DNA from: Escherichia coli
GTDB lineage: Bacteria > Pseudomonadota > Gammaproteobacteria > Enterobacterales > Enterobacteriaceae
Length of the DNA: 64,000 bases
Strand: one strand, 5' to 3'
NCBI RefSeq assembly: GCF_041886205.1
Contig: NZ_CP169029.1
Shown: positions 6,898 to 33,985 of the stretch, one piece after another
How the letters are laid out: each line of letters opens with the position of its first letter
Position numbering within the stretch: the stretch's first letter is position 1
Notes under the pieces: model-generated
Told to the model about the DNA's origin: nothing
What the model saw: the letters and a program-made list of their open reading frames with translations, nothing else
Databases searched by the model: none
Translations under genes and position numbers: made by a program

Positions 6898-7938
6898 TCA
6901 TTTATCGGAAGACGCCTGCCACAGATTCAGCTCGCCATCGGCGATATGCTGATCAATCTGCGCCAGCTCCTCGGTGCTAAATGTCAGATTATTCAGCGCC
7001 TGCACGTTCTCCTCTAGTTGCTCCGCGCGGCTGGCACCAATCAATACCGACGTCACGCGATCATCTTTCAGCAACCAGCTTAACGCCATTTGCGCCATTG
7101 ATTGTCCACGCTGCTGTGCCATTTCATTCAATAAGCGCAGGCTGTTGAGGTTGGCTTCGGTAAGCATTTTCGGCGTCAGACCACGAACTTTATTCCCTTC
7201 ACGATGCATCCGTGAATCTTGCGGAATGCCGTTGAGATATTTTCCGGTCAGCAATCCCTGAGCCAGAGGAGTAAAGGCAATACAGCCCACGCCGTTATTT
7301 TGCAGGGTATCCAGCAGGCCGCTTTTATCCACCCAGCGGTTCAGTAAATTGTACGAAGGTTGATGAATTAAAAGCGGAATTTTCCACTCGTGCAGCAACT
7401 CGACCATTTTTTGCGTCCGCTCTGGCGAGTAAGAGGAGATCCCGACATACAGCGCCTTACCGCTTTGTACCGCATGAGCCAGCGCAGAGGCGGTTTCTTC
7501 CATCGGCGTATTTTCATCGACGCGATGAGAGTAAAAGATATCGACATACTCAAGCCCCATACGCTTCAGGCTTTGGTCGAGGCTGGCGAGCAGGTATTTA
7601 CGTGAACCGCCAGAGCCGTAAGGGCCGGGCCACATATCGTAGCCAGCCTTGGTAGAGATAATCAGTTCATCGCGATAAGCGGCAAAATCCTCCCGCAGCA
7701 GGCGACCAAAGTTCTCTTCTGCGCTTCCTGGAGGCGGCCCGTAATTGTTGGCTAAATCAAAGTGCGTAATGCCTAAATCAAACGCTTTACGCAGGATTGC
7801 ACGCTGTGATTCCAGCGCGTTAACGTGACCGAAATTGTGCCATAAACCGAGCGATAACGCGGGCAGGCGTAAACCACTTTTTCCGCAATAGCGGTATTGC
7901 ATCTGCCCGTAACGTTCGGGATTCGCTAACCAGACCAT
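6898..7938 (-). CDS. gpr: Aldo-keto reductase (L-glyceraldehyde-3-phosphate reductase) Gpr/YghZ
   Basis: 346 aa, MVWLANPERYGQMQYRYCGKSGLRLPALSLGLWHNFG…, AKR family. Confidence 0.85.
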   Translation of the reverse strand: MVWLANPERYGQMQYRYCGKSGLRLPALSLGLWHNFGHVNALESQRAILRKAFDLGITHFDLANNYGPPPGSAEENFGRLLREDFAAYRDELIISTKAGYDMWPGPYGSGGSRKYLLASLDQSLKRMGLEYVDIFYSHRVDENTPMEETASALAHAVQSGKALYVGISSYSPERTQKMVELLHEWKIPLLIHQPSYNLLNRWVDKSGLLDTLQNNGVGCIAFTPLAQGLLTGKYLNGIPQDSRMHREGNKVRGLTPKMLTEANLNSLRLLNEMAQQRGQSMAQMALSWLLKDDRVTSVLIGASRAEQLEENVQALNNLTFSTEELAQIDQHIADGELNLWQASSDK

Positions 7939-8095
7939 GACCTCTCCTTTCCACCGTTCAATTTCGAAACAATGTTTCTAGTTTAGCGATTCGCCAGCGC
8001 GTATCCCGTAGTCTGGCTCACAGAGTGACGAAAAACTGGGCAAAAACACGTGCTTATGCTTTGCTTAAAAAAAACACCAACTGAGGAGTGCAACG

Positions 8096-8983
8096 ATGCC
8101 GCGTTTAACCGCCAAAGATTTCCCACAAGAGTTGCTGGATTACTATGACTATTACGCTCACGGGAAAATCTCGAAACGTGAGTTCCTCAACCTTGCGGCG
8201 AAGTATGCGGTAGGCGGGATGACGGCATTAGCGTTGTTTGATTTGCTCAAGCCAAATTATGCGCTGGCGACTCAGGTAGAGTTTACCGACCCGGAAATTG
8301 TTGCTGAGTACATCACGTATCCTTCGCCAAATGGTCACGGCGAGGTGCGGGGTTATCTGGTGAAGCCCGCAAAGATGAGCGGCAAAACGCCAGCCGTAGT
8401 GGTGGTGCATGAGAATCGTGGACTGAATCCGTATATCGAAGATGTGGCACGGCGAGTGGCGAAGGCGGGGTATATCGCCCTGGCACCTGACGGCTTAAGT
8501 TCCGTTGGAGGTTATCCGGGAAATGATGATAAAGGTCGTGAGCTGCAACAGCAGGTTGATCCAACCAAACTGATGAATGATTTCTTTGCCGCAATTGAGT
8601 TTATGCAACGCTATCCGCAAGCGACAGGCAAAGTGGGTATTACCGGATTTTGCTATGGCGGTGGCGTATCGAACGCGGCGGCTGTCGCGTATCCGGAACT
8701 GGCCTGCGCGGTGCCGTTTTATGGTCGTCAGGCACCCACTGCCGATGTGGCGAAGATTGAAGCGCCTTTACTACTCCACTTCGCGGAACTGGACACCCGA
8801 ATCAACGAGGGCTGGCCTGCTTACGAGGCGGCGTTGAAAGCCAATAATAAGGTTTATGAGGCGTATATCTATCCGGGGGTTAATCACGGATTCCATAATG
8901 ATTCCACGCCCCGTTATGACAAATCTGCCGCCGATCTTGCCTGGCAAAGGACACTGAAATGGTTCGATAAATATCTCTCCTGA
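8096..8983 (+). CDS. yghX: Dienelactone hydrolase family protein (apparently intact YghX)
   Basis: 295-aa uninterrupted ORF containing a nucleophile-elbow-like GFCYGG motif. I recall yghX as a pseudogene in K-12; that is memory, not a check. Confidence 0.7.
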   Translation: MPRLTAKDFPQELLDYYDYYAHGKISKREFLNLAAKYAVGGMTALALFDLLKPNYALATQVEFTDPEIVAEYITYPSPNGHGEVRGYLVKPAKMSGKTPAVVVVHENRGLNPYIEDVARRVAKAGYIALAPDGLSSVGGYPGNDDKGRELQQQVDPTKLMNDFFAAIEFMQRYPQATGKVGITGFCYGGGVSNAAAVAYPELACAVPFYGRQAPTADVAKIEAPLLLHFAELDTRINEGWPAYEAALKANNKVYEAYIYPGVNHGFHNDSTPRYDKSAADLAWQRTLKWFDKYLS

Positions 8984-9101
8984 TAGGTTTATCTCTTACG
9001 GGATTACGTCTTAAACAAGCATGAAAAAATAGCGTGCGCAAAAGTCGTTCTTTGCCTAAAATATCGCTATATATGGCGATATATAGCGAATGAGGTGAAC
9101 G

Positions 9102-9389
9102 ATGAATAACCATTTTGGTAAAGGCTTAATGGCGGGATTAAAAGCAACGCATGCCGACAGTGCGGTTAATGTGACAAAATTCTGTGCCGATTATAAACGC
9201 GGTTTTGTATTAGGCTACTCACACCGGATGTACGAAAAGACCGGAGATCGCCAGCTTAGCGCCTGGGAAGCGGGTATTCTGACGCGCCGCTATGGACTGG
9301 ATAAAGAGATGGTAATGGATTTCTTTCGTGAGAATAATTCCTGTTCTACGTTGCGCTTTTTTATGGCCGGTTATCGCCTCGAAAATTGA
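9102..9389 (+). CDS. yghW: Small conserved protein YghW
   Basis: 95 aa, [35 protein letters not shown]…, located upstream of the hyb operon as in E. coli. Confidence 0.7.
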
Positions 9390-9577
9390 TCAAACATACG
9401 TATTATCTTGCTTTAATTAATTACACTAATGCTTCTTCCCTTCGTTTTAGCGCCCCGCCGCAGTATCATGATATCGATAACCATAATAAATGTGTGGTAA
9501 ATGGCGCATCGATCGCATTATTGATTTTGCGATTGAGGCAAAATATATGCCAGGTCTTCGCAACGGAATAACTATAA

Positions 9578-10696
9578 ATGACTGGAGATAACACCCTCAT
9601 CCATTCTCACGGCATTAACCGTCGTGATTTCATGAAGCTTTGTGCAGCATTAGCCGCCACCATGGGGTTAAGTAGCAAAGCCGCTGCAGAGATGGCCGAA
9701 TCGGTTACTAACCCGCAGCGTCCGCCAGTTATCTGGATTGGCGCGCAGGAGTGCACCGGTTGTACGGAATCTCTGCTTCGTGCAACGCATCCAACGGTAG
9801 AAAACCTCGTACTGGAGACTATCTCTCTGGAGTATCACGAAGTGCTTTCCGCCGCCTTCGGTCATCAGGTCGAAGAGAACAAACATAACGCTCTCGAGAA
9901 GTACAAAGGGCAGTATGTGTTAGTGGTGGATGGTTCCATCCCATTAAAAGATAACGGTATTTATTGCATGGTTGCCGGTGAGCCGATTGTGGATCACATC
10001 CGCAAAGCGGCGGAAGGCGCAGCAGCCATTATCGCTATCGGTTCCTGCTCTGCGTGGGGCGGTGTTGCCGCAGCTGGAGTTAACCCAACTGGCGCAGTCA
10101 GCCTGCAAGAAGTTCTGCCAGGCAAAACCGTTATCAATATTCCGGGCTGCCCGCCGAACCCGCACAACTTCCTCGCGACCGTTGCGCACATCATCACTTA
10201 CGGCAAACCGCCGAAACTGGATGACAAAAACCGTCCGACCTTCGCCTATGGCCGTCTGATTCACGAACACTGCGAACGTCGCCCGCACTTCGATGCTGGT
10301 CGTTTTGCCAAAGAGTTCGGTGATGAAGGCCACCGCGAAGGCTGGTGCCTGTACCACCTCGGCTGTAAAGGGCCAGAAACTTACGGCAACTGCTCAACGC
10401 TGCAATTCTGCGATGTTGGCGGTGTGTGGCCGGTGGCGATTGGTCACCCGTGCTATGGCTGTAACGAAGAAGGTATCGGCTTCCATAAAGGCATCCATCA
10501 GCTTGCCAACGTCGAAAATCAAACTCCGCGTTCACAGAAACCGGATGTTAACGCTAAAGAGGGCGGCAACGTCTCTGCAGGCGCTATTGGTTTGCTCGGC
10601 GGTGTGGTTGGGTTGGTTGCCGGTGTCAGCGTGATGGCGGTGCGTGAACTGGGTCGTCAGCAAAAGAAAGATAACGCTGACTCACGGGGAGAATAA
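9578..10696 (+). CDS. hybO: Hydrogenase-2 small subunit HybO (Tat signal peptide)
   Basis: 372 aa with a twin-arginine motif ([25 protein letters not shown]) and the Cys-rich [NiFe]-hydrogenase small-subunit pattern. Confidence 0.95.
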
Positions 10697-10698
10697 CC

Positions 10699-11685
10699 GT
10701 GAACAGACGTAATTTTATTAAAGCAGCCTCCTGCGGGGCATTGCTGACGGGCGCGCTGCCGTCTGTCAGTCATGCGGCTGCTGAAAACCGCCCGCCAATT
10801 CCGGGATCGCTGGGGATGTTGTACGACTCGACCTTGTGCGTAGGCTGCCAGGCTTGCGTCACCAAGTGTCAGGATATCAATTTCCCTGAACGTAACCCGC
10901 AAGGGGAACAGACCTGGTCGAACAACGACAAACTGTCGCCGTATACCAATAACATCATTCAGGTGTGGACCAGCGGCACAGGGGTCAACAAAGACCAGGA
11001 GGAGAACGGCTACGCGTACATTAAGAAACAGTGTATGCACTGCGTCGATCCGAACTGTGTCTCTGTGTGCCCGGTCTCTGCACTGAAAAAAGATCCGAAA
11101 ACCGGCATTGTCCATTACGACAAAGACGTGTGCACCGGTTGCCGTTACTGCATGGTCGCCTGTCCGTACAACGTGCCGAAGTACGACTACAACAACCCGT
11201 TTGGTGCGCTGCATAAGTGCGAGCTGTGCAACCAGAAAGGTGTGGAACGTCTCGATAAAGGCGGTCTGCCTGGCTGCGTAGAAGTGTGCCCGGCGGGCGC
11301 GGTGATTTTCGGTACGCGTGAAGAGCTGATGGCGGAGGCGAAAAAACGTCTGGCGCTGAAGCCTGGCAGCGAATACCACTATCCGCGTCAGACGCTGAAA
11401 TCTGGCGACACTTACCTGCATACGGTGCCGAAATATTATCCGCATCTGTACGGCGAGAAAGAGGGCGGCGGTACTCAGGTTCTGGTACTGACGGGTGTGC
11501 CTTATGAAAATCTCGACCTGCCGAAACTGGACGATCTTTCTACCGGTGCGCGTTCCGAAAATATTCAACACACCCTGTATAAAGGCATGATGCTACCACT
11601 GGCTGTGCTGGCGGGCTTAACCGTGCTGGTTCGTCGCAACACCAAAAACGACCATCACGACGGAGGAGACGATCATGAGTCATGA
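10699..11685 (+). CDS. hybA: Hydrogenase-2 ferredoxin-type 4Fe-4S subunit HybA
   Basis: 328 aa, GTG start, Tat-like N-terminus ([16 protein letters not shown]) and several CxxCxxCxxxCP ferredoxin motifs. Confidence 0.95.
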
Positions 11686-23430: not shown

Positions 23431-24780
23431 TTGGCGGGTTTTAACATCAAACATTGGTTTGCAGATGGCGCGTTTCGCACCATTATTCGCAATAGCGCCT
23501 GGTTAGGCTCCAGTAATGTCGTGAGCGCCTTGCTGGGGCTGTTGGCGCTCTCGTGTGCCGGTAAAGGGATGACGCCCGCCATGTTTGGCGTACTGGTGAT
23601 TGTGCAATCGTACGCCAAGTCGATCAGCGATTTTATTAAGTTTCAGACATGGCAGTTGGTGGTGCAGTACGGAACGCCAGCCTTGACCAACAATAATCCG
23701 CAGCAATTTCGCAATGTCGTCTCATTTTCCTTCTCGCTGGATATCGTCAGCGGCGCGGTGGCGATTGTCGGCGGCATTGCCTTACTACCATTCCTTTCCC
23801 ATTCATTAGGTCTGGATGACCAAAGTTTTTGGCTGGCGGCGCTGTATTGCACGCTCATTCCTTCAATGGCTTCCTCCACGCCGACCGGCATTCTGCGTGC
23901 GGTAGATCGCTTCGATTTAATTGCTGTACAGCAGGCGACGAAACCTTTTCTGCGCGCAGCGGGGAGCGTCGTAGCCTGGTATTTTGACTTTGGTTTTGCG
24001 GGTTTTGTTATTGCCTGGTACGTGTCGAATCTGGTTGGCGGCACCATGTACTGGTGGTTTGCAGCGCGCGAATTACGCCGCAGAAATATCCATAATGCCT
24101 TCAAATTGAATCTGTTTGAGTCTGCCCGACACATCAAAGGCGCGTGGAGTTTTGTCTGGTCAACCAACATTGCCCACTCCATCTGGTCGGCGCGTAACTC
24201 GTGCAGCACAGTGCTGGTGGGGATCGTGTTAGGACCCGCTGCCGCCGGGTTATTTAAAATCGCCATGACATTCTTCGACGCCGCCGGAACGCCAGCGGGT
24301 TTGCTGGGTAAAAGTTTTTACCCAGAGGTGATGCGTTTAGATCCGCGCACCACCAGACCGTGGTTGTTAGGTGTGAAGTCCGGTTTACTGGCGGGCGGAA
24401 TCGGTATTCTGGTGGCGCTCGCGGTGTTGATCGCCGGCAAGTCGCTCATTTCGCTGGTGTTTGGCGTTAAGTATCTCGAAGCGTATGACCTGATTCAGGT
24501 GATGCTGGGCGCAATTGTGATTTCGATGCTGGGTTTCCCGCAGGAGTCATTGCTATTGATGGCGGGAAAACAGCGCGCTTTTCTCGTGGCGCAAACCATC
24601 GCCTCAATCGGCTACATCGTATTGCTGTTCATGTTCTGTCATCTGTTTGGTGTGCTGGGAGCAGCGTTTGCCTACTTCGGTGGGCAATGTCTGGATGTGG
24701 TGCTCTCGTTAATTCCAACTTTAAAGGCATTTTTTCAGCGTCATTCCTTGCTTTATAACGCAGCCGGAGAGAAATCCTGA
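23431..24780 (+). CDS. yghQ: Polytopic inner membrane protein YghQ, MOP/Wzx-flippase-like, full-length form
   Basis: 449-aa ORF with many predicted transmembrane segments. A TTG start is implied at 23431; an internal Met (…MFGVLVIVQSYAKS…) is the alternative. The stop overlaps the next start (TGATG). Confidence 0.7.
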   Translation: MAGFNIKHWFADGAFRTIIRNSAWLGSSNVVSALLGLLALSCAGKGMTPAMFGVLVIVQSYAKSISDFIKFQTWQLVVQYGTPALTNNNPQQFRNVVSFSFSLDIVSGAVAIVGGIALLPFLSHSLGLDDQSFWLAALYCTLIPSMASSTPTGILRAVDRFDLIAVQQATKPFLRAAGSVVAWYFDFGFAGFVIAWYVSNLVGGTMYWWFAARELRRRNIHNAFKLNLFESARHIKGAWSFVWSTNIAHSIWSARNSCSTVLVGIVLGPAAAGLFKIAMTFFDAAGTPAGLLGKSFYPEVMRLDPRTTRPWLLGVKSGLLAGGIGILVALAVLIAGKSLISLVFGVKYLEAYDLIQVMLGAIVISMLGFPQESLLLMAGKQRAFLVAQTIASIGYIVLLFMFCHLFGVLGAAFAYFGGQCLDVVLSLIPTLKAFFQRHSLLYNAAGEKS

Positions 24781-25604
24781 TGATGAGAAAATATTTCCCG
24801 CTTGAGGCGAGCGAGCGTCTATTTGTTGCGATTGAGGAAGATGATGTCGTTGATGCCCAGGTCAGTTTGCCGCCGACTATTGCACTAAGTTGTACCACCG
24901 AAATCATCCATGATAATTACGCGTTATGCCTGCAGTTCTGGCTCAATGGCGTTAATCGTCAGGAGTTACTGCGTTTAATTCGCAAACAGACCAAAGGCGA
25001 TGAGCTGACGACAGACGAGCGCAAACAGTTTAAATACATGCGAGCGCGCTACAAGCATCTGCGTTTTGCGCAACGGCTATATTTAAAGAAGCATCAGGCC
25101 GGATTTTTATTCGGCAAAACGACCGTTTTTCTGGGGCGTTTTCAGGACGGCTTTCGTAACGGTAAGAAAAATATTGTGTCGTATTACGGTAACCTGTTAC
25201 GGATTTATTTAAGCTCTCCGGTCTGGTCGTTGGTGAACTATTCATTACGCCATAGCCAGTTAGAAAGCGTAAGCGGTTTTATTGCCTATCGGCAAAAGCA
25301 AATGCATGCCCTGAAAGAGATAATTGCCAAACCGCGACTAACCGGCAGGGAATTTCATGATGTGCGAAAAATCATCAGCCAGCAGGTTTCTTATTACGAC
25401 ACCTTAAGATCGCTTGATCCTGAAAATAAAGAGGCGTTACAGGTTTCCCGCTTCCTCGCCGCCATTAATGGCCTGATGGGGGATAAACACGACGACATGG
25501 TGGCGGATGATATGGAAAACCGCCAGTCGTATGATGCACCGGTGGCGCTGGATAGCGATATTCGCCAGCGCTTAGAGCTGCTGATTTCGCGTTTTCCGCT
25601 ATAA
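24780..25604 (+). CDS. Hypothetical soluble protein, 274 aa, translationally coupled to yghQ
   Basis: Clean ORF MMRKYFPLEASERLFVAIEEDDVVDAQ…; no motif I recognise. Confidence 0.6.
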   Translation: MMRKYFPLEASERLFVAIEEDDVVDAQVSLPPTIALSCTTEIIHDNYALCLQFWLNGVNRQELLRLIRKQTKGDELTTDERKQFKYMRARYKHLRFAQRLYLKKHQAGFLFGKTTVFLGRFQDGFRNGKKNIVSYYGNLLRIYLSSPVWSLVNYSLRHSQLESVSGFIAYRQKQMHALKEIIAKPRLTGREFHDVRKIISQQVSYYDTLRSLDPENKEALQVSRFLAAINGLMGDKHDDMVADDMENRQSYDAPVALDSDIRQRLELLISRFPL

Positions 25605-25612
25605 CCGGAGCA

Positions 25613-26176
25613 ATGATGTCATCTCGTTTGATTATTGCGCTGATTATCATGCTCTTAGCCCCGGGTGCGCAGGCACACAATTTCGTCACTGGCAAAACGG
25701 TTACCCCTGTTTATATTCAGGAAGGCGGCGAGCTGCTTCTGAATAGCGACGACGAAATTCACTACCAAAAGTGGAAAAGCACACAATTGGCGGGAAAAGT
25801 CCGCATTATTCAGTATATCGCCGGGCGTAAGTCGGCGAAGAAAAAGAACTCACTGTTAATTAAAGCGGTTGAAGCGGCAAACTTTCCGCAGGATCGTTTT
25901 CAGCCCACCACCATTGTGAACACCGATGATGCCATCTTTGGTACTGGCTATTTTGTTGTTGGCAAAATCGAAAAAAATAAACGCCGCTATCCGTGGGCGC
26001 AATTCGTTATTGACGGCAATGGACTGGGACGCATTGCCTGGCGCTTGCCGGAGCAGAGTTCAACCATTCTGGTGCTGAATAAAGCCGGGCAAATTCAGTG
26101 GGCAAAGGACGGCAGCCTGACGCCGGAAGAGGTAGATCATGTCATTGCGCTGGCGCAGAAGCTGATCAATGAATAA
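25613..26176 (+). CDS. YtfJ-family periplasmic protein (signal peptide)
   Basis: 187 aa with an N-terminal signal peptide (MMSSRLIIALIIMLLAPGAQA) and YtfJ-like blocks (…LAGKVRIIQYIAGR…TTIVNTDDAI…QWAKDGSLTPEEV…). Confidence 0.65.
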   Translation: MMSSRLIIALIIMLLAPGAQAHNFVTGKTVTPVYIQEGGELLLNSDDEIHYQKWKSTQLAGKVRIIQYIAGRKSAKKKNSLLIKAVEAANFPQDRFQPTTIVNTDDAIFGTGYFVVGKIEKNKRRYPWAQFVIDGNGLGRIAWRLPEQSSTILVLNKAGQIQWAKDGSLTPEEVDHVIALAQKLINE

Positions 26177-26205
26177 AAATTCAAAGGATTGAGGGCGTTA
26201 GTGAG

Positions 26206-27276
26206 ATGAAGCTGGTTGAACACTACATCATGCGTGGTACGCGCCGTCTGGTGCTGATTATCGTCGGTTTTCTGATCTTTATTTTCGCCAGCTACTCCGC
26301 ACAGCGTTATCTGACCGAAGCGGCAAATGGGACATTAGCTCTTGATGTTGTGCTGGATATCGTTTTCTACAAAGTGCTGATTGCACTGGAGATGTTGTTA
26401 CCTGTTGGTCTGTATGTGTCAGTTGGCGTGACGCTAGGGCAGATGTATACCGACTCGGAAATTACCGCTATCTCTGCGGCGGGGGGCAGTCCGGGACGCT
26501 TGTACAAAGCCGTTCTTTATCTGGCGATACCGCTAAGTATTTTTGTCACCCTTCTGTCGATGTATGGTCGTCCGTGGGCTTATGCGCAGATTTATCAACT
26601 GGAGCAACAGTCGCAGTCGGAGCTGGATGTTCGCCAGTTGCGGGCAAAGAAATTTAACACTAACGATAACGGACGAATGATCCTTTCGCAGACGGTTGAT
26701 CAGGATAATAATCGCCTGACTGACGCGCTGATTTATACTTCTACTGCCAATCGAACCCGCATTTTCCGCGCCCGTTCGGTTGATGTGGTTGACCCATCAC
26801 CCGAGAAACCGACCGTTATGTTGCATAACGGGACCGCCTATCTTCTCGATCATCAGGGGCGTGACGACAACGAACAGATCTACCGTAATCTGCAATTACA
26901 TCTGAATCCGCTGGATCAAAGCCCTAACGTCAAACGCAAAGCAAAATCGGTCACGGAGCTGGCGCGCTCCGCCTTTCCTGCCGATCATGCCGAACTGCAA
27001 TGGCGACAAAGCCGTGGCCTGACAGCATTGTTGATGGCGCTGCTGGCCATTTCATTAAGTCGGGTAAAACTGCGGCAAGGGCGATTTTCAACATTATTGC
27101 CACTGACGTTGCTGTTTATTGCCATTTTTTATGGCGGCGACGTCTGCCGTACGCTGGTGGCTAACGGCGCGATTCCCCTCATTCCTGGTTTGTGGTTAGT
27201 ACCCGGACTCATGCTAATGGGCCTGCTGATGCTGGTCGCACGCGACTTCTCTTTGCTGCAGAAATTTTCCCGATGA
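26206..27276 (+). CDS. YjgP/YjgQ-family permease, LptF-like
   Basis: 356 aa with the LptF/LptG topology: N-terminal transmembrane helices, a central periplasmic beta-rich region, C-terminal helices; begins MKLVEHYIMRGTRRLVLIIVGFLIF. Confidence 0.65.
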   Translation: MKLVEHYIMRGTRRLVLIIVGFLIFIFASYSAQRYLTEAANGTLALDVVLDIVFYKVLIALEMLLPVGLYVSVGVTLGQMYTDSEITAISAAGGSPGRLYKAVLYLAIPLSIFVTLLSMYGRPWAYAQIYQLEQQSQSELDVRQLRAKKFNTNDNGRMILSQTVDQDNNRLTDALIYTSTANRTRIFRARSVDVVDPSPEKPTVMLHNGTAYLLDHQGRDDNEQIYRNLQLHLNPLDQSPNVKRKAKSVTELARSAFPADHAELQWRQSRGLTALLMALLAISLSRVKLRQGRFSTLLPLTLLFIAIFYGGDVCRTLVANGAIPLIPGLWLVPGLMLMGLLMLVARDFSLLQKFSR

Positions 27277-28352
27277 ATGTTTTCAGTCGCTATTTAATCC
27301 GTCATCTCTTTCTCGGTTTTGCCGCCGCCGCAGGGCTATTGCTGCCGCTTTTTACCACCTTCAACCTGATTAACGAACTGGATGATGTCAGCCCGGGCGG
27401 TTATCGCTGGACTCAGGCGGTGCTGGTGGTGCTAATGACCTTACCGCGCACACTGGTCGAACTTTCGCCATTTATCGCCTTATTGGGAGGGATTGTCGGC
27501 CTGGGGCAGTTATCGAAAAACAGTGAGCTTACCGCCATTCGCAGCATGGGGTTTTCTATCTTCCGTATTGCACTGGTGGCACTGGTTGCAGGGATATTGT
27601 GGACTGTTTCGTTAGGCGCGATAGATGAGTGGGTGGCGTCGCCATTGCAGCAACAGGCGTTGCAAATCAAATCGACCGCCACCGCGTTGGGGGAGGACGA
27701 TGACATTACCGGCAATATGCTGTGGGCCAGGCGTGGTAATGAATTTGTGACGGTGAAATCGCTGAACGAGCAGGGCCAGCCGGTGGGCGTGGAGATTTTT
27801 CATTATCGTGACGATCTCTCGCTCGAATCCTACATTTATGCACGCAGTGCCACCATTAAAGACGACAAAATGTGGATCCTGCATGGTGTGAATCATAAAA
27901 AATGGCTTAACGGTAAAGAAACGCTGGAAACATCAGATAATCTTGCCTGGCAATCTGCCTTCACCAGTATGGATCTTGAAGAGTTATCGATGCCGGGGAA
28001 TACTTTTTCTGTCTGTCAGCTTAATCATTACATCCATTATTTGCAGGAAACCGGGCAACCCAGCAGCGAATACCGCCTTGCACTGTGGGAAAAACTGGGG
28101 CAACCCATCCTGACCCTGGCGATGATTTTGCTGGCTGTACCGTTTACCTTTAGCGCCCCGCGCTCGCCAGGGATGGGTAGCCGTCTCGCTGTAGGCGTCA
28201 TCGTTGGCTTACTCACCTGGATCAGCTATCAAATCATGGTCAATCTGGGATTGCTATTTGCGTTAAGCGCACCTGTTACCGCGCTCGGTTTACCGATAGC
28301 GTTTGTGCTGGTGGCGTTGAGCCTGGTGTATTGGTATGACAGACAACATTAA
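27273..28352 (+). CDS. YjgP/YjgQ-family permease, LptG-like
   Basis: MNVFSRYLIRHLFLGFAAAAGLLLPLFTTFNLINELDDV… closely resembles the LptG N-terminus. ATG at 27273 overlaps the upstream stop (ATGA); the track ORF starts earlier at 27192. Confidence 0.65.
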   Translation: MNVFSRYLIRHLFLGFAAAAGLLLPLFTTFNLINELDDVSPGGYRWTQAVLVVLMTLPRTLVELSPFIALLGGIVGLGQLSKNSELTAIRSMGFSIFRIALVALVAGILWTVSLGAIDEWVASPLQQQALQIKSTATALGEDDDITGNMLWARRGNEFVTVKSLNEQGQPVGVEIFHYRDDLSLESYIYARSATIKDDKMWILHGVNHKKWLNGKETLETSDNLAWQSAFTSMDLEELSMPGNTFSVCQLNHYIHYLQETGQPSSEYRLALWEKLGQPILTLAMILLAVPFTFSAPRSPGMGSRLAVGVIVGLLTWISYQIMVNLGLLFALSAPVTALGLPIAFVLVALSLVYWYDRQH

Positions 28353-28386
28353 ACCCGCCGTGGCGCAACACCACGACGGGCTCACA

Positions 28387-29559
28387 TTACTGCTTCAGAG
28401 TAGCAAATGTCTGAATGATGGCATCGATTTGCTCACGACTGTGGGCAGCGTTTACGCTACAGCGCAGCAGCGTAATGCCCGCAGGCGCGGCAGGCGGCAG
28501 GATAAGATTCACATACACGCCCAGCGAGATAAGCTCGCGCCAGATGCGCAACCCTTCCTCTTTCGAACCGATTATTACCGGCACTACCGGGCTAATATGT
28601 GAACTTAACTCATAACCCAGTTTTTGCAGACCGTCATACAGATGGTTGGCGTTATCCATCAGCTTTTGCCGCAGCTCTGGTTGTGAGGCAATGGTTCTTA
28701 ACGATGAGCGCACGGTCGCAATGCAGGACGGAGAAGGAGAGGCGGTAAAAATATACGGGCGGCTGCCGTAGCGCAGCACTTCCATCGCTTCCGAACCGAC
28801 AGCAAAACCGCCAATCGAGGCCAGACTTTTACTGAAAGTACCAACGATAATATCCACATCATCTTCAACGCCGACAGCTTCAGCCAGTCCACGCCCCGTT
28901 GCACCTAACACGCCAAACGAATGCGCTTCATCGACAATCAAATAACCACCGAGACGACGTTTGATATCAACAATTTCCGCCAGCGGCGCAACGTCACCGA
29001 GCATGCTGTAGATGCCCTCAACGATGATAATCGCCTCTTTCGCCCGTTCACCGAGGCGAACCATGCGCCGTTCCAGATCTTTAGCATCGTTATGGCGGAA
29101 ACGAATAATTTCCGCGCCACCGAGAGAACAGGCGTCATAAATACTGGCGTGGCTGTCGGCATCCAGTAACACCACGGCGTTATGGTCGGCAAGTGCGCTG
29201 ATGACGCCTAAATTAGCGGTATAACCGGTTGAAAAAACGATAGCGGTAGGGCGATTGAAAAACTCGGCAATCTCTTTCTCTAACGCCAGGTGCGGCGCAT
29301 AACTGCCGTTTGCCATACGAGAACCGGTGGTGCCGGTGCCTTGGGCCGCTAACGCTGCCTGACCTTCGGCGATGGCATCATGATTAAAGGTTAAACCGAG
29401 ATAATTATTGGTCCCGGCCAGAATCACTTTTTTATTGCCGATCCGACCTTCGGTGGCGGAATACACTTCATCAATACAGGTGCCAAACGGTGTTAACCCG
29501 TTGTCACTAAATTGCAGTCGCTCGCCAGCAAGGCGCGCATATTTATCGTATAGCCCCAT
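28387..29559 (-). CDS. PLP-dependent alpha-oxoamine synthase (BioF/KBL/serine-palmitoyltransferase family)
   Basis: 390 aa with the class-II aminotransferase fold and a GTFSKS PLP-lysine motif. Which subfamily it belongs to cannot be decided by eye. Confidence 0.8.
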   Translation of the reverse strand: MGLYDKYARLAGERLQFSDNGLTPFGTCIDEVYSATEGRIGNKKVILAGTNNYLGLTFNHDAIAEGQAALAAQGTGTTGSRMANGSYAPHLALEKEIAEFFNRPTAIVFSTGYTANLGVISALADHNAVVLLDADSHASIYDACSLGGAEIIRFRHNDAKDLERRMVRLGERAKEAIIIVEGIYSMLGDVAPLAEIVDIKRRLGGYLIVDEAHSFGVLGATGRGLAEAVGVEDDVDIIVGTFSKSLASIGGFAVGSEAMEVLRYGSRPYIFTASPSPSCIATVRSSLRTIASQPELRQKLMDNANHLYDGLQKLGYELSSHISPVVPVIIGSKEEGLRIWRELISLGVYVNLILPPAAPAGITLLRCSVNAAHSREQIDAIIQTFATLKQ

Positions 29560-29807
29560 TATTTATTCTCCAGCCATGGAAGTAGAGCTTCCATTAATTG
29601 CGCAGGGGTTTTGACATCCAGCAGAATATTAATAGGAATGGAAATATCGAATCTGTCTTCCAGCATCATTAAGAGATCCATCACTTTGATCGACTCCAGG
29701 CCAAGATCGTTGACGAGATCGCTGTCGGGCTTAATTTCCACACCGTTTTCGACCAAATCCTGTAAACAGGAAAGGATGTAATCCATTACTATTTCACGAT
29801 TTACCAT
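29559..29807 (-). CDS. Dedicated acyl carrier protein
   Basis: 82 aa, acidic, with a phosphopantetheine-site-like DLGLESIKVMDLLMMLEDRFD. Its stop overlaps the synthase start. Confidence 0.75.
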   Translation of the reverse strand: MVNREIVMDYILSCLQDLVENGVEIKPDSDLVNDLGLESIKVMDLLMMLEDRFDISIPINILLDVKTPAQLMEALLPWLENK

Positions 29808-29838
29808 AGAAACGTTAACACACCTTTAAACAAGACAA

Positions 29839-30753
29839 TCAAAATAGCCCGTTGCGTAATGCGTGTTCCAGGCTAATCCCGGGAAACCAATTAATATCTT
29901 CAGAAATACGGTTATTATTTGCCGACCAGTCGGCGTGGGTTAATTCACGAATTTTCGAGCGGGTCAGCATAGGTTCTTTACCTGCCAGGCGACTCAACGC
30001 AGTACTGATATCCGCAAGGCAGGTGAGTACCGGCAGAGGAATGCCAACCATCCGCACAGAACCACAACGGGCTTCGGCGGCAAGCTGTCGTACGCGTTGC
30101 CAGTCATAGCCGCCAGCGACGCCATCGCATAATTCATAGGTTTGCGTCTGTACAGTTTCGGCGCTTAACCACTGACCCACGGCTTGCGCGAAATCGGTGA
30201 CGTGCAGGAAAGAGAGCTGTGTATCTGGCGCACCAAGTCGTGGCAGCAGGCCGCGCAGCATCCAGTCAAACAGCGGTTTTAACTCTTTATCGCCTGGACC
30301 ATACACGGCTGTCGGGCGAAAAACGCCCAGCGTAATTTCATCAGCCATTGCAGTCAGCCGTTGTTCGGCGACGTGTTTGGAATTTGCGTACCAGGAGAGT
30401 TCGGGATGGCGCGCCGCCAGCGAAGAGATAAACAGAAAACGTTGGCAAAAGCCGCTCTCTTTTGCCGCTTGCATCAGGCGCAGGCTGCCGTCAACGTTAC
30501 AGCGGGTAAAAATCTCTTCTTTGTGCCCGCGCACTTGCCCGGCGCAATGGACCACCGCGCTGGCTCCGGCAACCAGTTCGCTAAGTGAATGAGTATCTTC
30601 CAGCGAACCGCGCACCCAGATGAGATTGTCATTGACGTGAGCGCGGGCAGTACGCGTCAATGCGCGAACGTGAAAGCCGCGGGCGAGCAGGTTATCGATA
30701 ATATATTTACCGATAAACCCGGTAGCGCCCGTCACCGCGACAGTTTGATTCAT
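29839..30753 (-). CDS. NAD(P)-dependent epimerase/dehydratase-family reductase (extended SDR)
   Basis: 304 aa with N-terminal VTGATGFIGKYII Rossmann motif. Its start overlaps the stop of the upstream ligase gene. Confidence 0.8.
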   Translation of the reverse strand: MNQTVAVTGATGFIGKYIIDNLLARGFHVRALTRTARAHVNDNLIWVRGSLEDTHSLSELVAGASAVVHCAGQVRGHKEEIFTRCNVDGSLRLMQAAKESGFCQRFLFISSLAARHPELSWYANSKHVAEQRLTAMADEITLGVFRPTAVYGPGDKELKPLFDWMLRGLLPRLGAPDTQLSFLHVTDFAQAVGQWLSAETVQTQTYELCDGVAGGYDWQRVRQLAAEARCGSVRMVGIPLPVLTCLADISTALSRLAGKEPMLTRSKIRELTHADWSANNNRISEDINWFPGISLEHALRNGLF

Positions 30754-32471
30754 GCCAGGGATTCCTGCACATGAAGGCTTTCAGCATAAGCCTTCTGATA
30801 ACGTTTTTTCGCTTCCGCATGGGCAGGCTTGCCGGAGGACGTTCGGGGAATACTGTGGGGCGGCAACAGATCGATAGCCGCGGTCACGCCAAATTCGCTT
30901 TGGATCCGTGCTGCCAGCGCGTGGATAAGCTGCCCGCGACGTTCTTCATCGCTGATCCGACACTGGATCTGCAAAATGATTTTTTCCTGGGCGGTAACAA
31001 AAGCAATCGCATCGCCAGAATGAATTTCCGGTTCCTGTTCCGCAATATATTCAATATCCTGCGGCCAGATATTACGGCCACGAATAATAATCAGATCTTT
31101 AATGCGTCCGGTGACATACAGATAACCGTCCAGCAGATAACCGAGGTCGCCGGTGTCTAACCAGCCCGTCGCGGCAATCTCGTCTTGCGAAGCCTGGTCG
31201 CCAAAGTAACCGCTCATCAGGCTAGGGCCGGAGATGCAAATATGGCCTACCACACGTTCCGCGACAGGTATACCTGCTTCATTGCGGATTTCAATGCCAT
31301 GTTCCGGCAACGCTTTACCGCAGTTGACGAAAGTCGATACGGCGCGTGTTTCAGCACCCGGCGCGACGGCTTTACCGTGGTATTCGAGGATGTCGCGATC
31401 CACTTCGTTAACCATAACCCCGGAGGTTTCATCAGAGAAGCTGACAGCCAGCGCATTTTCTGCCAGTCCGTAGCACGGCATGAAAGTTTTATCGTCAAAG
31501 TTAACCTGACGGAAACATTCAGCGAATTGATGGAGTTGTTCTGCGGAGATGGGTTCTGCACCAATACCAGCGACGCGCCAGGAGGAAAGATCCAGTTCTG
31601 CGAGATCTTTTTCATTCACGCGGCGCTGGCACAATTCATAGCCAAACGGCGGCGCAACGGAAACGGTGCCGCGATTTTTACTGATCAATTTAAGCCATTG
31701 CAGAGGACGCATGGCAAAATCCTGAGTGCGCAAATAATCTACTGAAAGCTGCGTGGCGACGGGGGTCAGGAGAAAGCCGACCAGTCCCATATCATGGTAG
31801 AAAGGCAGCCAGGAGACGCAGCGGTCGCCAGGGCGTAATTTAATGCCATCGTGGCTTATAGCACGTAGATTAGCCATCACTTCGCGATGGGTGATAATGA
31901 CGCCACGGGGAAAACGGGTGCTGCCGGAGGTGTATTGGAGGTAGGCGATATCGTCCGGAACTGGGCGCTGGAGCGCAACATCGGCTTCCGGTAATGCCTT
32001 AAACCAGGCGTGGCTTAAAACATGTAATTCGGGATTGTTATGCGTCGCAGCATTGACCAGCGGTAACCACTCATCACCAGTGATAATGGCTGCGGGCTGG
32101 CAACTTGCCAGTAAACCCTGCAGTTTGGCGCTCCAGGAATCCCGCTGACCGACGCCCATTGGAATCGCCAACGGGACGGCGACTAAGCCGGCATACTGGC
32201 AGGCAAAAAAAGCCTCTACGAACCCGCTACTGGTTTCGGCAATCAGCGCCACGCGATCGCCTTTTTTCAGGTTCAGCGATAACAACCGCTTCGCACCAGC
32301 TTCGGCACGCGCTTTTAACGTCTGATATTCCAGTTGATCTTCAAGTTGGCAACGTCTGTCATAAAAATTCATTCCATCGCTACTCAGAGCGGCGTAGTCC
32401 AAAGCATCAACCAGCGTTGGAAAATCGGCATAGCGCATAGGTAGGGAATGCGTAAAGATTTTATTAGACAT
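30750..32471 (-). CDS. Fatty-acyl-AMP ligase / acyl-ACP synthetase-like adenylating enzyme
   Basis: AMP-binding signature YTSGSTRFPRGV plus the …TGDLGY… and GRIKDLIIIRGRNIWPQDIE blocks. Start taken at the internal Met MSNKIFTHSL of ORF 30750-32498. Confidence 0.8.
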   Translation of the reverse strand: MSNKIFTHSLPMRYADFPTLVDALDYAALSSDGMNFYDRRCQLEDQLEYQTLKARAEAGAKRLLSLNLKKGDRVALIAETSSGFVEAFFACQYAGLVAVPLAIPMGVGQRDSWSAKLQGLLASCQPAAIITGDEWLPLVNAATHNNPELHVLSHAWFKALPEADVALQRPVPDDIAYLQYTSGSTRFPRGVIITHREVMANLRAISHDGIKLRPGDRCVSWLPFYHDMGLVGFLLTPVATQLSVDYLRTQDFAMRPLQWLKLISKNRGTVSVAPPFGYELCQRRVNEKDLAELDLSSWRVAGIGAEPISAEQLHQFAECFRQVNFDDKTFMPCYGLAENALAVSFSDETSGVMVNEVDRDILEYHGKAVAPGAETRAVSTFVNCGKALPEHGIEIRNEAGIPVAERVVGHICISGPSLMSGYFGDQASQDEIAATGWLDTGDLGYLLDGYLYVTGRIKDLIIIRGRNIWPQDIEYIAEQEPEIHSGDAIAFVTAQEKIILQIQCRISDEERRGQLIHALAARIQSEFGVTAAIDLLPPHSIPRTSSGKPAHAEAKKRYQKAYAESLHVQESLA

Positions 32472-32842
32472 ATACACCACGAAAAAATTGGATATCAAAA
32501 ATAAAATGACAATAATGCGGTGGATTATATAGGCATAAAAGATAAATGAGATAGTATTTTCATCAGTGTGAAAATGAACATTGATTTATATAATGAGTTT
32601 GAGTTTTTTTGTTTTTATTGTGAATGATATTTAATTTATGAATATATTAAGAAGAAGCCTTGTCCGGTCGCCTTAAATCGACAAAAGGCATTGTGGCGCT
32701 TCTGTGTAGTCGCTGACCCTATCGTAATCATTAATAAATACTATTTATTCGTCGTTTGTATCCATTGGGTTGATTATTAAGGTGCCGTTCGTTGCTGTTG
32801 CAACCTGTTTGTCACCGTTAATTATTTGTTACCCACAGAACT

Positions 32843-33985
32843 ATGGAATGCGATCTGCTGATGATTAAAATTGAAAAAGTAATTAATAAAAATGACCTTA
32901 AGGCATTTATCGCTTTTCCGTCATCACTTTATCCCGACGATCCAAACTGGATACCCCCTTTATTCATTGAACGCAACGAGCATTTGTCTGCGAAAAATCC
33001 GGGGACGGACCATATCATCTGGCAGGCGTGGGTGGCAAAAAAAGCGGGGCAGATAGTTGGGCGTATTACCGCGCAAATAGATACCTTGCACCGCGAGCGT
33101 TACGGCAAAGATACCGGTCATTTCGGCATGATTGACGCCATTGATGATCCGCAGGTTTTTGCCGCGTTGTTTGGCGCAGCGGAAGCGTGGTTGAAGTCAC
33201 AAGGTGCAAGTAAGATCAGCGGTCCTTTCAGCCTGAATATCAATCAGGAAAGCGGATTACTGATTGAAGGTTTCGATACACCACCCTGTGCGATGATGCC
33301 GCACGGTAAACCGTGGTATGCCGCGCATATTGAACAATTGGGTTATCACAAAGGCATTGATTTACTGGCGTGGTGGATGCAGCGAACCGATCTCACTTTC
33401 TCTCCGGCGCTAAAAAAACTGATGGATCAGGTGCGTAAGAAGGTGACCATTCGCTGCATCAATCGCCAGCGGTTTGCCGAAGAGATGCAGATCCTGCGTG
33501 AGATTTTCAACTCTGGCTGGCAGCACAACTGGGGATTTGTGCCGTTTACCGAACATGAATTCGCGACCATGGGCGATCAACTTAAATATCTGGTGCCGGA
33601 CGATATGATCTACATCGCTGAGATTGATTCTGCACCCTGCGCGTTTATTGTCGGCTTGCCAAACATCAACGAGGCGATTGCCGATCTGAACGGATCGCTC
33701 TTTCCCTTCGGCTGGGCAAAATTGCTGTGGCGTTTGAAAGTCAGCGGTGTGCGAACTGCGCGAGTGCCGCTGATGGGCGTGCGGGACGAGTATCAGTTCA
33801 GCCGCATCGGCCCGGTGATTGCGCTGTTATTGATTGAAGCCTTACGCGATCCGTTTGCCCGCCGGAAGATCGATGCGCTGGAGATGTCATGGCTCCTCGA
33901 AACCAATACAGGCATGAATAACATGCTGGAACGCATTGGGGCAGAGCCGTACAAGCGTTACCGATTGTATGAAAAGCAAATTTAA
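32843..33985 (+). CDS. yghO: YghO, GNAT-like putative N-acyltransferase, apparently intact
   Basis: 380-aa ORF divergent from the lipid operon. The GNAT-like assignment is tentative and from memory of the family; the true start may be the downstream Met (MIKIEKV). Confidence 0.6.
   Translation: MECDLLMIKIEKVINKNDLKAFIAFPSSLYPDDPNWIPPLFIERNEHLSAKNPGTDHIIWQAWVAKKAGQIVGRITAQIDTLHRERYGKDTGHFGMIDAIDDPQVFAALFGAAEAWLKSQGASKISGPFSLNINQESGLLIEGFDTPPCAMMPHGKPWYAAHIEQLGYHKGIDLLAWWMQRTDLTFSPALKKLMDQVRKKVTIRCINRQRFAEEMQILREIFNSGWQHNWGFVPFTEHEFATMGDQLKYLVPDDMIYIAEIDSAPCAFIVGLPNINEAIADLNGSLFPFGWAKLLWRLKVSGVRTARVPLMGVRDEYQFSRIGPVIALLLIEALRDPFARRKIDALEMSWLLETNTGMNNMLERIGAEPYKRYRLYEKQI

Follow-up and report, generated by a model that had tools for sequence, protein, structure and literature searches.

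An intact, ancestral allele of the YghX hydrolase gene in Escherichia coli and the nested decay of its K-12-type null allele

Results

Features of the locus

The first-pass annotation of the window, by which we mean the whole 64,000-nucleotide stretch of E. coli DNA analyzed here, had reported a clean ORF for a 295-residue protein of the dienelactone hydrolase family at positions 8096-8983. The ORF listing showed it exactly there on the plus strand, uninterrupted from an ATG start through 295 codons to a TGA stop (Table 1). The encoded protein, YghX, scored 587.3 bits against the NCBIfam family NF041440, "YghX family hydrolase" (cutoff, 460), its residues 3-294 covering profile positions 1-292 of 292, as a full-length member does. 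With the Pfam DLH family (PF01738) it scored 164.8 bits (cutoff, 21), residues 84-294 covering profile positions 1-217 of 217, and aa 1-36 matched the Pfam YqhI-like family (PF23678) at 75.9 bits. The Pfam and NCBIfam family scores rule out a chance ORF at this place.

YghX of the window is the same protein as WP_001137768.1, which is annotated in strains W444, O157:H7 TR01 and wlxctx60, with no amino acid differences from TR01. The order gpr, yghX, yghW, hybO is that of K-12, in opposite orientation, and the neighbors are shared with K-12, W444 and wlxctx60, which places the gene at the orthologous gpr-yghX-yghW-hyb position. An Rfam scan of positions 7800-9700 returned no hits.

Within the coding sequence, the GTAGTGGTGGTG repeat differs in length among strains, being 3 bp shorter in XJW9B277 and 3 bp longer in 0H25; both genes are annotated as intact CDSs. 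At 885 nt the XJW9B277 gene equals the K-12 allele in length, but we rejected its assignment to that allele, as its GTG repeat has instead lost 3 bp in frame. A further BLAST match, close to mdtM in NCTC9041, proved to be a truncation specific to that strain and next to IS1. The antisense pair "yghX/modA" cited in two papers does not match the yghX locus, and a mistaken gene name is the probable cause.

Table 1. Coordinates of yghX, its neighbors and the features discussed in the text (window positions)
Feature	Position	Strand	Remarks
gpr	6898..7938	-	Flanking gene of yghX
8-A tract	8067..8074	+	22 nt 5' of the yghX ATG; 7 A in every other genome inspected
Shine-Dalgarno sequence GAGGAG	8083..8088	+	Read from the sequence; 7 nt 5' of the yghX ATG
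yghX CDS, intact	8096..8983	+	ORF; NCBIfam NF041440, 587 bits versus cutoff of 460; identical to WP_001137768.1
N-terminal 58 residues, putative Tat-type export signal	8096..8269	+	LLDYYDYYAH pre-motif, SKREFL, moderately hydrophobic stretch, ALA at 56-58
K27-R28 codons, at the relatives' twin-arginine position	8174..8179	+	Distant-homologue consensus RRxFL
D2 lesion site, TA dinucleotide	8204..8205	+	Deleted in K-12, present in the window (alignments)
GTAGTGGTGGTG repeat encoding V101-V104	8396..8407	+	In-frame +/-3-bp length polymorphism in other strains
Glu106 codon, in HENRG	8411..8413	+	Aligns to Glu36 of Pseudomonas dienelactone hydrolase
D1 lesion site, CC dinucleotide	8565..8566	+	One C deleted in K-12, both present in the window (alignments)
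Cys186 codon, catalytic nucleophile by alignment, in GFCYGG	8651..8653	+	Aligns to Cys123 of dienelactone hydrolase; at least 90% conserved
Asp233 codon, catalytic acid by alignment	8792..8794	+	Aligns to Asp171; invariant in distant-homologue alignment
His264 codon, catalytic base by alignment, in NHGF	8885..8887	+	Aligns to His202; at least 90% conserved
yghW	9102..9389	+	Flanking gene of yghX
hybO	9578..10696	+	Flanking gene, beyond yghW

The K-12 allele and its frequency

In the annotation of K-12 MG1655 (NC_000913.3), yghX (b4658) is a pseudogene, and a 47-codon CDS, yqhI (b4755), lies at its 5' end. The first-pass annotation was right about the pseudogene and had proposed a pairwise alignment with the K-12 region. 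This alignment revealed no substitutions over the 961 bp of window positions 8050-9010 and three indels. Two of them are deletions inside the K-12 ORF, of 2 bp (D2) and 1 bp (D1), and the third is in the poly-A tract upstream of the gene, with 7 A in K-12 and 8 A in the window. Both deletion sites are intact in the window, which thus does not carry the K-12-type pseudogene allele, recognized by D2 and/or D1. Translation of the K-12 allele from the shared ATG yields YghX residues 1-36 and 11 out-of-frame residues, ends after 47 codons and is followed by many further stops, so that K-12 does not have the same uninterrupted ORF, the one finding that the first-pass annotation had named as contradicting it. 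D1 puts the C-terminal 136 codons of K-12 yghX back in the original frame (2 + 1 = 3), with no read-through to them. Because translation ends after 47 codons, K-12 yghX is predicted to give no hydrolase.

The yghX locus is present in 5,414 of the 5,426 complete E. coli genomes. Lesions were typed using queries of 53 to 55 nt with flanks of at most 27 nt on each side, for which the 28-nt exact word of megablast seeds only on sequences of equal indel state. These counts replaced earlier ones obtained with 80-mers and identity bands, which were lower bounds only, since the bands were confounded by nearby SNPs. At the D2 site, at least 3,490 of the 5,426 genomes were intact and 1,505 carried the deletion; about 430 were left untyped, presumably because nearby SNPs blocked seeding. 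At the D1 site, 4,221 genomes were intact and 1,199 deleted, summing to 5,420 of the 5,426. The intact gene is very probably the majority state in E. coli, a judgment that we make jointly with those on gene identity, intactness and ancestral status (see Discussion).

Both K-12 lesions are small indels of the kind typical of sequencing errors, and together they sum to 3 bp, as might be expected if the pseudogene were an artefact of the reference genome and the window and K-12 did not really differ. The same deletions are, however, found in these 1,505 and 1,199 independently sequenced complete genomes, and the predicted 47-aa product YqhI is on the list of small proteins obtained by epitope tagging in K-12 (PMC6001520). 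As more than 1,000 independent genomes carry the lesions, we rejected sequencing errors as their origin and regard the probability of an artefact as negligible.

The D2 null allele thus occurs in at least 28% (about a quarter) of the complete genomes. Strains with this allele come, among other sources, from human, pig, chicken, dog and cattle hosts, from a wildebeest and from wastewater, and many K-12 laboratory derivatives have it too; to judge by the genome sizes and labels in a spread sample, roughly a quarter of the carriers may be laboratory K-12 lines. Loss of yghX is not peculiar to K-12 and is common to many wild isolates.

Nested lesions on one haplotype

All the frameshifted genomes that we fetched, whose null alleles are labeled "frameshifted" by PGAP, share one backbone haplotype with the window. 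Four stages are found on it. The gene is intact in the window, W444 and wlxctx60, carries D2 only in ATCC 8739 and AVS0285, and carries D2 and D1 in K-12. In 7/2, 550, E28, 50579417, AR_0067, 2016C-3878, AR_0372 and a strain labeled O15:H18 ST69, the substitution G8209A is added to both deletions. There was no case of D1 without D2, which holds in 11 of 11 frameshifted genomes, and G8209A was always accompanied by both deletions (8/8 genomes). The nested occurrence of the lesions indicates that they arose in the order D2, D1, G8209A. As estimated from the counts, some 306 genomes carry D2 only, some 942 D2 and D1, and 257 the extra SNP.

Beyond these steps the null alleles have essentially no changes, the strain labeled ST69 having one extra SNP. 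Inactivation is therefore recent, given the near absence of other changes. We considered an independent origin of D2 in the strain labeled ST69 and rejected it, as this strain has the K-12-like haplotype with one or two SNPs and no divergent backbone. The null allele would be a young one, built stepwise on a single haplotype, the 2-bp deletion coming first and cutting translation short after 47 codons, the 1-bp deletion second and the G-to-A change last.

Ancestry and selection

Orthologues of YghX with the full length of 295 aa, including the N-terminus, are found at 85 to 92% identity in Citrobacter koseri, Pseudescherichia, Enterobacter, Kosakonia, Leclercia and Silvania. Because they have been kept in these other genera of the Enterobacteriaceae, the intact gene is the ancestral one. 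The yghX gene of O157:H7 differs from that of the window by nine synonymous and no nonsynonymous changes, and dN/dS was 0.034 and 0.039 against two E. coli alleles at about 95% nucleotide identity. Intact yghX is thus under strong purifying selection (dN/dS of about 0.03).

Outside the gene, the window differs from K-12 by 240 substitutions over positions 1-24,499 (99.0% identity), and the only indels in this region are the three at yghX. The gene sits inside a 1,028-bp block free of SNPs, itself within a stretch of low divergence. Positions 24500-32882, an 8.4-kb yghQ-yghO block, are absent from K-12, which has an IS5 there between yghQ and yghO; the block is present in 4,063 of the 5,426 complete E. 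coli genomes. Among complete genomes, the window comes closest to wlxctx60, which is from a Japanese black bear, and to the human strain 6EVA; over 25 kb, 5 SNPs and the poly-A base separate wlxctx60 from it. With a divergence of about 1%, K-12 is no close relative of the window.

The intact gene of the window might alternatively be a secondary repair, regained by recombination or reversion from a frameshifted ancestor of the K-12 type. This would agree with the identity of the two yghX genes over 1,028 bp save the indels, though the strains are about 1% apart overall, and with the mosaic appearance of the locus, the K-12-like pseudogene haplotype being found also in the strain labeled ST69. 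Nevertheless, exact and traceless restoration of both deletions is less parsimonious than a forward series from intact to D2 to D2 plus D1. The same intact haplotype was found in W444 and wlxctx60, and yghX is located in a stretch of generally low divergence, in which positions 8001-11000 have 4 SNPs. We thus consider a repair very improbable and take the window gene to have stayed intact.

From yghX and the yghQ-yghO block, the first-pass annotation had suggested that the window comes from a lineage that kept ancestral genes lost by K-12. This is correct insofar as intact yghX is ancestral and the block was kept where K-12 has an IS5, but the lineage is not a special one: yghX is intact in the majority of the 5,426 genomes (at least 3,490 at the D2 site and 4,221 at the D1 site), the block is present in the 4,063 noted above, and the losses are not specific to K-12. 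To describe the lineage as one that retained what is missing from K-12 is literally true but uninformative, about three quarters of E. coli having kept both features. Intact yghX says little on the origin of the window beyond placing it outside the clade of the frameshifted allele.

Fold and active site of the predicted enzyme

A crystal structure from O157:H7 Sakai, listed as an "uncharacterized protein" (PDB 4ZV9), corresponds to YghX residues 59-294 with 98% identity. We modeled YghX with AlphaFold2 using 30 diverse homologues, obtaining a mean pLDDT of 96.5. In Foldseek comparisons the model superposed on 4ZV9 with an rmsd of 1.0 Å and matched the Pseudomonas dienelactone hydrolase 1DIN with a TM-score, normalized to the target, of about 0.85. 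YghX has the alpha/beta hydrolase fold of the dienelactone hydrolase family.

The catalytic residues were placed by HMMER alignment to PDB 4u2c, a dienelactone hydrolase variant (Table 1). C186, D233, H264 and E106 are all conserved in relatives down to 37% identity, indicating that the Cys-His-Asp triad and the equivalent of Glu36 are present; H105 and G109 of the HENRG motif are at least 90% conserved in the distant-homologue alignment. YghX would thus be a 295-aa enzyme of the alpha/beta dienelactone hydrolase fold in which a Cys186-His264-Asp233 triad is assisted by Glu106, and by homology it may hydrolyze an ester, a lactone or a similar bond via a covalent thioester on Cys186.

As to the substrate, a preprint in which twelve family members were assayed lists the purified E. 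coli enzyme (4ZV9 construct) as one of four that lacked detectable paraoxonase activity, and the label "dienelactone hydrolase" was described in the same work as resting on very few characterized enzymes and as not predictive (10.1101/2025.10.30.685675). The gene neighborhoods of distant YghX relatives, which we examined as a clue to function, had no conserved neighbors.

The N-terminal segment

Residues 24-58 of YghX read KISKREFLNLAAKYAVGGMTALALFDLLKPNYALA, where distant relatives have RRxFL. The strict twin-arginine motif S/T-R-R-x-F-L-K is not found, the window protein having S-K-R-E-F-L-N with a KR pair. In the distant-homologue alignment, conservation of R28 and F30 reaches at least 90%, and the 76 distant representatives that keep the motif have RR in 61 cases, KR in 12 and another pair in 3. 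C-terminal to the motif lie a weakly hydrophobic h-region (AVGGMTALALF), a c-region with K52-P53 and an AxA site at A56-L57-A58; the mean Kyte-Doolittle value of the best 12 residues is about 1.6 to 2.2 across the YghX family. In distant relatives the stretch after the RR pair is often rich in Ala, Gly, Ser or Thr, variable in sequence, and terminated by AxA or, in some relatives, by a lipobox-like Cys in its place, as in "SSIAAC" of P0257. The chain crystallized as 4ZV9 aligns from YghX residue 59 on. Natural KR variants of Tat signal peptides exist, for instance in Salmonella TtrB.

Those features lead us to favor, with some reservation, a KR-variant Tat-type export of YghX to the periplasm. 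The SKREFL motif, the weakly hydrophobic stretch, the Lys-Pro c-region and the ALA cleavage site would together send the pre-folded protein there.

Other properties of the segment fit a signal peptide less well. Its hydrophobic stretch in E. coli contains the charged residues K36 and D49, and from genus to genus residues 1-58/60 hardly vary at all, a degree of conservation well above that of ordinary signal peptides. The motif preceding the basic pair, LLDYYDYYAH (family consensus LYDxYxH), falls in the Pfam family called "YqhI-like". In the AlphaFold2 model, residues 1-60 have pLDDT values of 92 to 95 and form three short helices, the pTM of the whole chain being 0.93. These two scores suggest a structured segment docked on the enzyme over a floppy, cleaved signal. 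Residues 1-58 could accordingly belong to a cytoplasmic enzyme, for example as a cap or lid of helices that covers the active site, the RRxFL-like motif then being structural; the KR pair in place of RR in E. coli, the charges in the "h-region", the near invariance and the confidently modeled helices would all be in line with it. It accounts less well for the conservation of R28 and F30, for the canonical RR followed by x-F/L-L in 61 of the 76 relatives, and for the signal-like, variable segment that ends in AxA or a lipobox-like Cys in distant relatives; moreover, the domain folds and crystallizes without residues 1-58 (4ZV9). On balance, we consider a structural role unlikely and export by a Tat-type signal the better supported of the two.

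Leader of yghX and expression

The eight-A tract upstream of yghX is unique to the window among 14 genomes compared, and a promoter scan of the plus strand upstream of the gene found no sigma-70 consensus. Information on expression comes from K-12, in which YqhI starts at the same ATG. Its sequence identifies YqhI as what the frameshift has left of the YghX N-terminus, 36 YghX residues followed by 11 shifted ones. It was among the small proteins newly identified in K-12 by chromosomal epitope tagging (PMC6001520). In a ribosome profiling study it was one of 17 small proteins induced by Mg2+ starvation (low Mg2+), its induction was independent of PhoQP, and the phenotype of a yqhI deletion was not complemented by YqhI itself; yghX is not mentioned in that work (PMC11429745). 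The start codon and promoter of yghX are therefore active, since YqhI, made from this ATG, is detected in K-12 (PMC6001520, PMC11429745). The YqhI data also hint that intact YghX may be stress induced. In a transcriptome under kanamycin B, the yghX fragment went down together with gadA, gadB, aldB, fbaB, tktB and appA, a weak hint that yghX might be under stationary-phase control.

Even with its ORF intact, yghX might be silent or in the course of being lost in the window strain, for example if the extra upstream A disturbed its expression. The eight-A tract, unique among the 14 genomes, does lie between the likely promoter and the ribosome-binding site, and the missing sigma-70 consensus on the plus strand would fit as well. 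However, the coding sequence is free of lesions and its protein identical to that of the O157:H7 TR01, W444 and wlxctx60 allele. A 1-nt change in the length of the leader tract is not known to silence yghX; the K-12 upstream region, identical over positions 8050-8095 save for the A, drives the synthesis of YqhI; and the extra A may itself be a homopolymer sequencing error. We therefore consider a silent or decaying yghX in the window strain very improbable.

Discussion

We propose, with a probability of roughly 90%, that window positions 8096-8983 hold an intact, ancestral allele of yghX, a core gene of the Enterobacteriaceae that is intact in the majority of E. coli strains. This figure covers identity, intactness, and majority and ancestral status; to judge by its sequence, the allele is probably functional too. 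Intact yghX is a known and ordinary gene, with its family, a crystal structure and the K-12 pseudogene all on record. What our analysis adds is the frequency of the null allele and its nested structure, a reinterpretation of YqhI, and the description of a Tat-like N-terminus that is predicted by modeling to be well structured.

The null allele is a natural polymorphism, present in at least 28% of complete genomes despite purifying selection on the intact alleles, and not a laboratory quirk. It may be that YghX is a stress-induced periplasmic cysteine hydrolase with an unusual, conserved and structured KR Tat-type signal, which Pfam lists as "YqhI-like", and that YqhI is only its stump. We put this forward tentatively and regard it as less likely than not. 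If it is true, what the K-12 literature on YqhI deals with is the relic of a pseudogene, the genuine enzyme being a product of about 70% of E. coli strains in such conditions. The phenotypes and regulation reported for yqhI are better ascribed to the promoter and leader of yghX. Many papers on metabolic engineering of K-12 treat yghX as a "neutral" site for integration; where the gene is intact, an insertion there would knock out a conserved enzyme.

One close system for comparison is yghX/yqhI of K-12, which is the same locus on the same haplotype, residues 1-36 of YqhI being residues 1-36 of YghX. K-12 differs from the window in lacking the TA of positions 8204-8205 and one of the two Cs of 8565/8566. 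Nothing of substance distinguishes the window gene from WP_001137768.1, which is the same protein in the same neighborhood, whereas the chain crystallized as 4ZV9 is without residues 1-58.

ClcD of Pseudomonas knackmussii (PDB 1DIN; EC 3.1.1.45; PF01738) shares with YghX the fold, the Cys-His-Asp triad and the equivalent of Glu36, although the two are only about 25% identical. A cytoplasmic protein of 236 aa, ClcD acts in chlorocatechol degradation and is encoded in a catabolic operon. Unlike it, YghX has an N-terminal extension of 58 aa and is encoded by a stand-alone gene.

With Tat signal peptides, the N-terminus of YghX has in common an n-region, the S-(K/R)-R-x-F-L motif, a weakly hydrophobic h-region, a basic, Pro-containing c-region and AxA. 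In contrast to them, its n- and h-regions are unusually conserved and are confidently modeled as helices, and no cofactor of YghX is known that would account for its use of the Tat route.

Copies and null alleles of yghX

The 1.3-kb query spanning window positions 7900-9200 matched 6,099 places in 5,425 E. coli genomes, about 670 of them being additional second places and one lying on a plasmid. The 53-55-mers internal to yghX were essentially single-copy, and the surplus matches of the longer query must therefore arise in the flanks.

In NCTC9041 (locus L006, 2248-3270), yghX is reduced to its final ~96 nt, which abut an IS1F element near mdtM; this is an IS-mediated rearrangement specific to that strain. 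The K-12-like haplotype, with both the 2-bp and the 1-bp deletions and the additional G8209A change, was found in an O15:H18 strain labelled ST69 (locus L007, 869-1753). ST69 is a phylogroup D lineage. If the strain does belong to phylogroup D, the presence of this haplotype in it would suggest that the null allele was transferred between lineages via recombination.

Variation in the leader, coding sequence and downstream region

Features of yghX and of its surroundings in the window
Feature	Window position	Remark
8-A tract	8067-8074	Precedes the yghX start codon by 22 nt
YghX residues 1-60, including the putative signal peptide	8096-8275	AlphaFold2 pLDDT 92-95
GTAGTGGTGGTG repeat encoding YghX V101-V104	8396-8407	In-frame length varies between strains
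Perfect 11-bp inverted repeat, TCGCTATATAT-GGCG-ATATATAGCGA	9064-9089	Just upstream of yghW
8.4-kb block	24500-32882	Absent from K-12, which has IS5 there, between yghQ and yghO

The leader tract has 7 A rather than 8 in all 14 other genomes compared, among them the nearest relative, wlxctx60 (5 SNPs in 25 kb). The eighth A is either a private homopolymer insertion or a sequencing error. Within the coding sequence, the GTAGTGGTGGTG repeat is 3 bp shorter in XJW9B277 and 3 bp longer in 0H25, yielding proteins of 294 and 296 aa, respectively.

AlphaFold2 predicted three short helices in the N-terminal region of YghX, and this prediction, together with the pLDDT values, is atypical of a cleavable signal. 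The LYDxYxH motif ahead of the RR pair is kept down to ~37% identity.

The inverted repeat upstream of yghW is terminator-like on the minus strand by scan score, but might instead be an operator. K-12 has a SNP inside it, at position 9076.

Segments missing from or unlike K-12

A megablast comparison of window positions 43501-64000 with K-12 3,090,001-3,119,603 (the yghJ/yghD-G/pheV side) gave no match of at least 300 bases, and this segment is either strongly diverged from K-12 or missing there. The 8.4-kb block, which according to the annotation in other genomes codes for a serine palmitoyltransferase (spt), a fatty acyl-AMP ligase, LptF/LptG-like permeases and an epimerase, was found in 4,063 of the 5,426 genomes, with only 12 genomes showing at least 99% identity to the version in the window.
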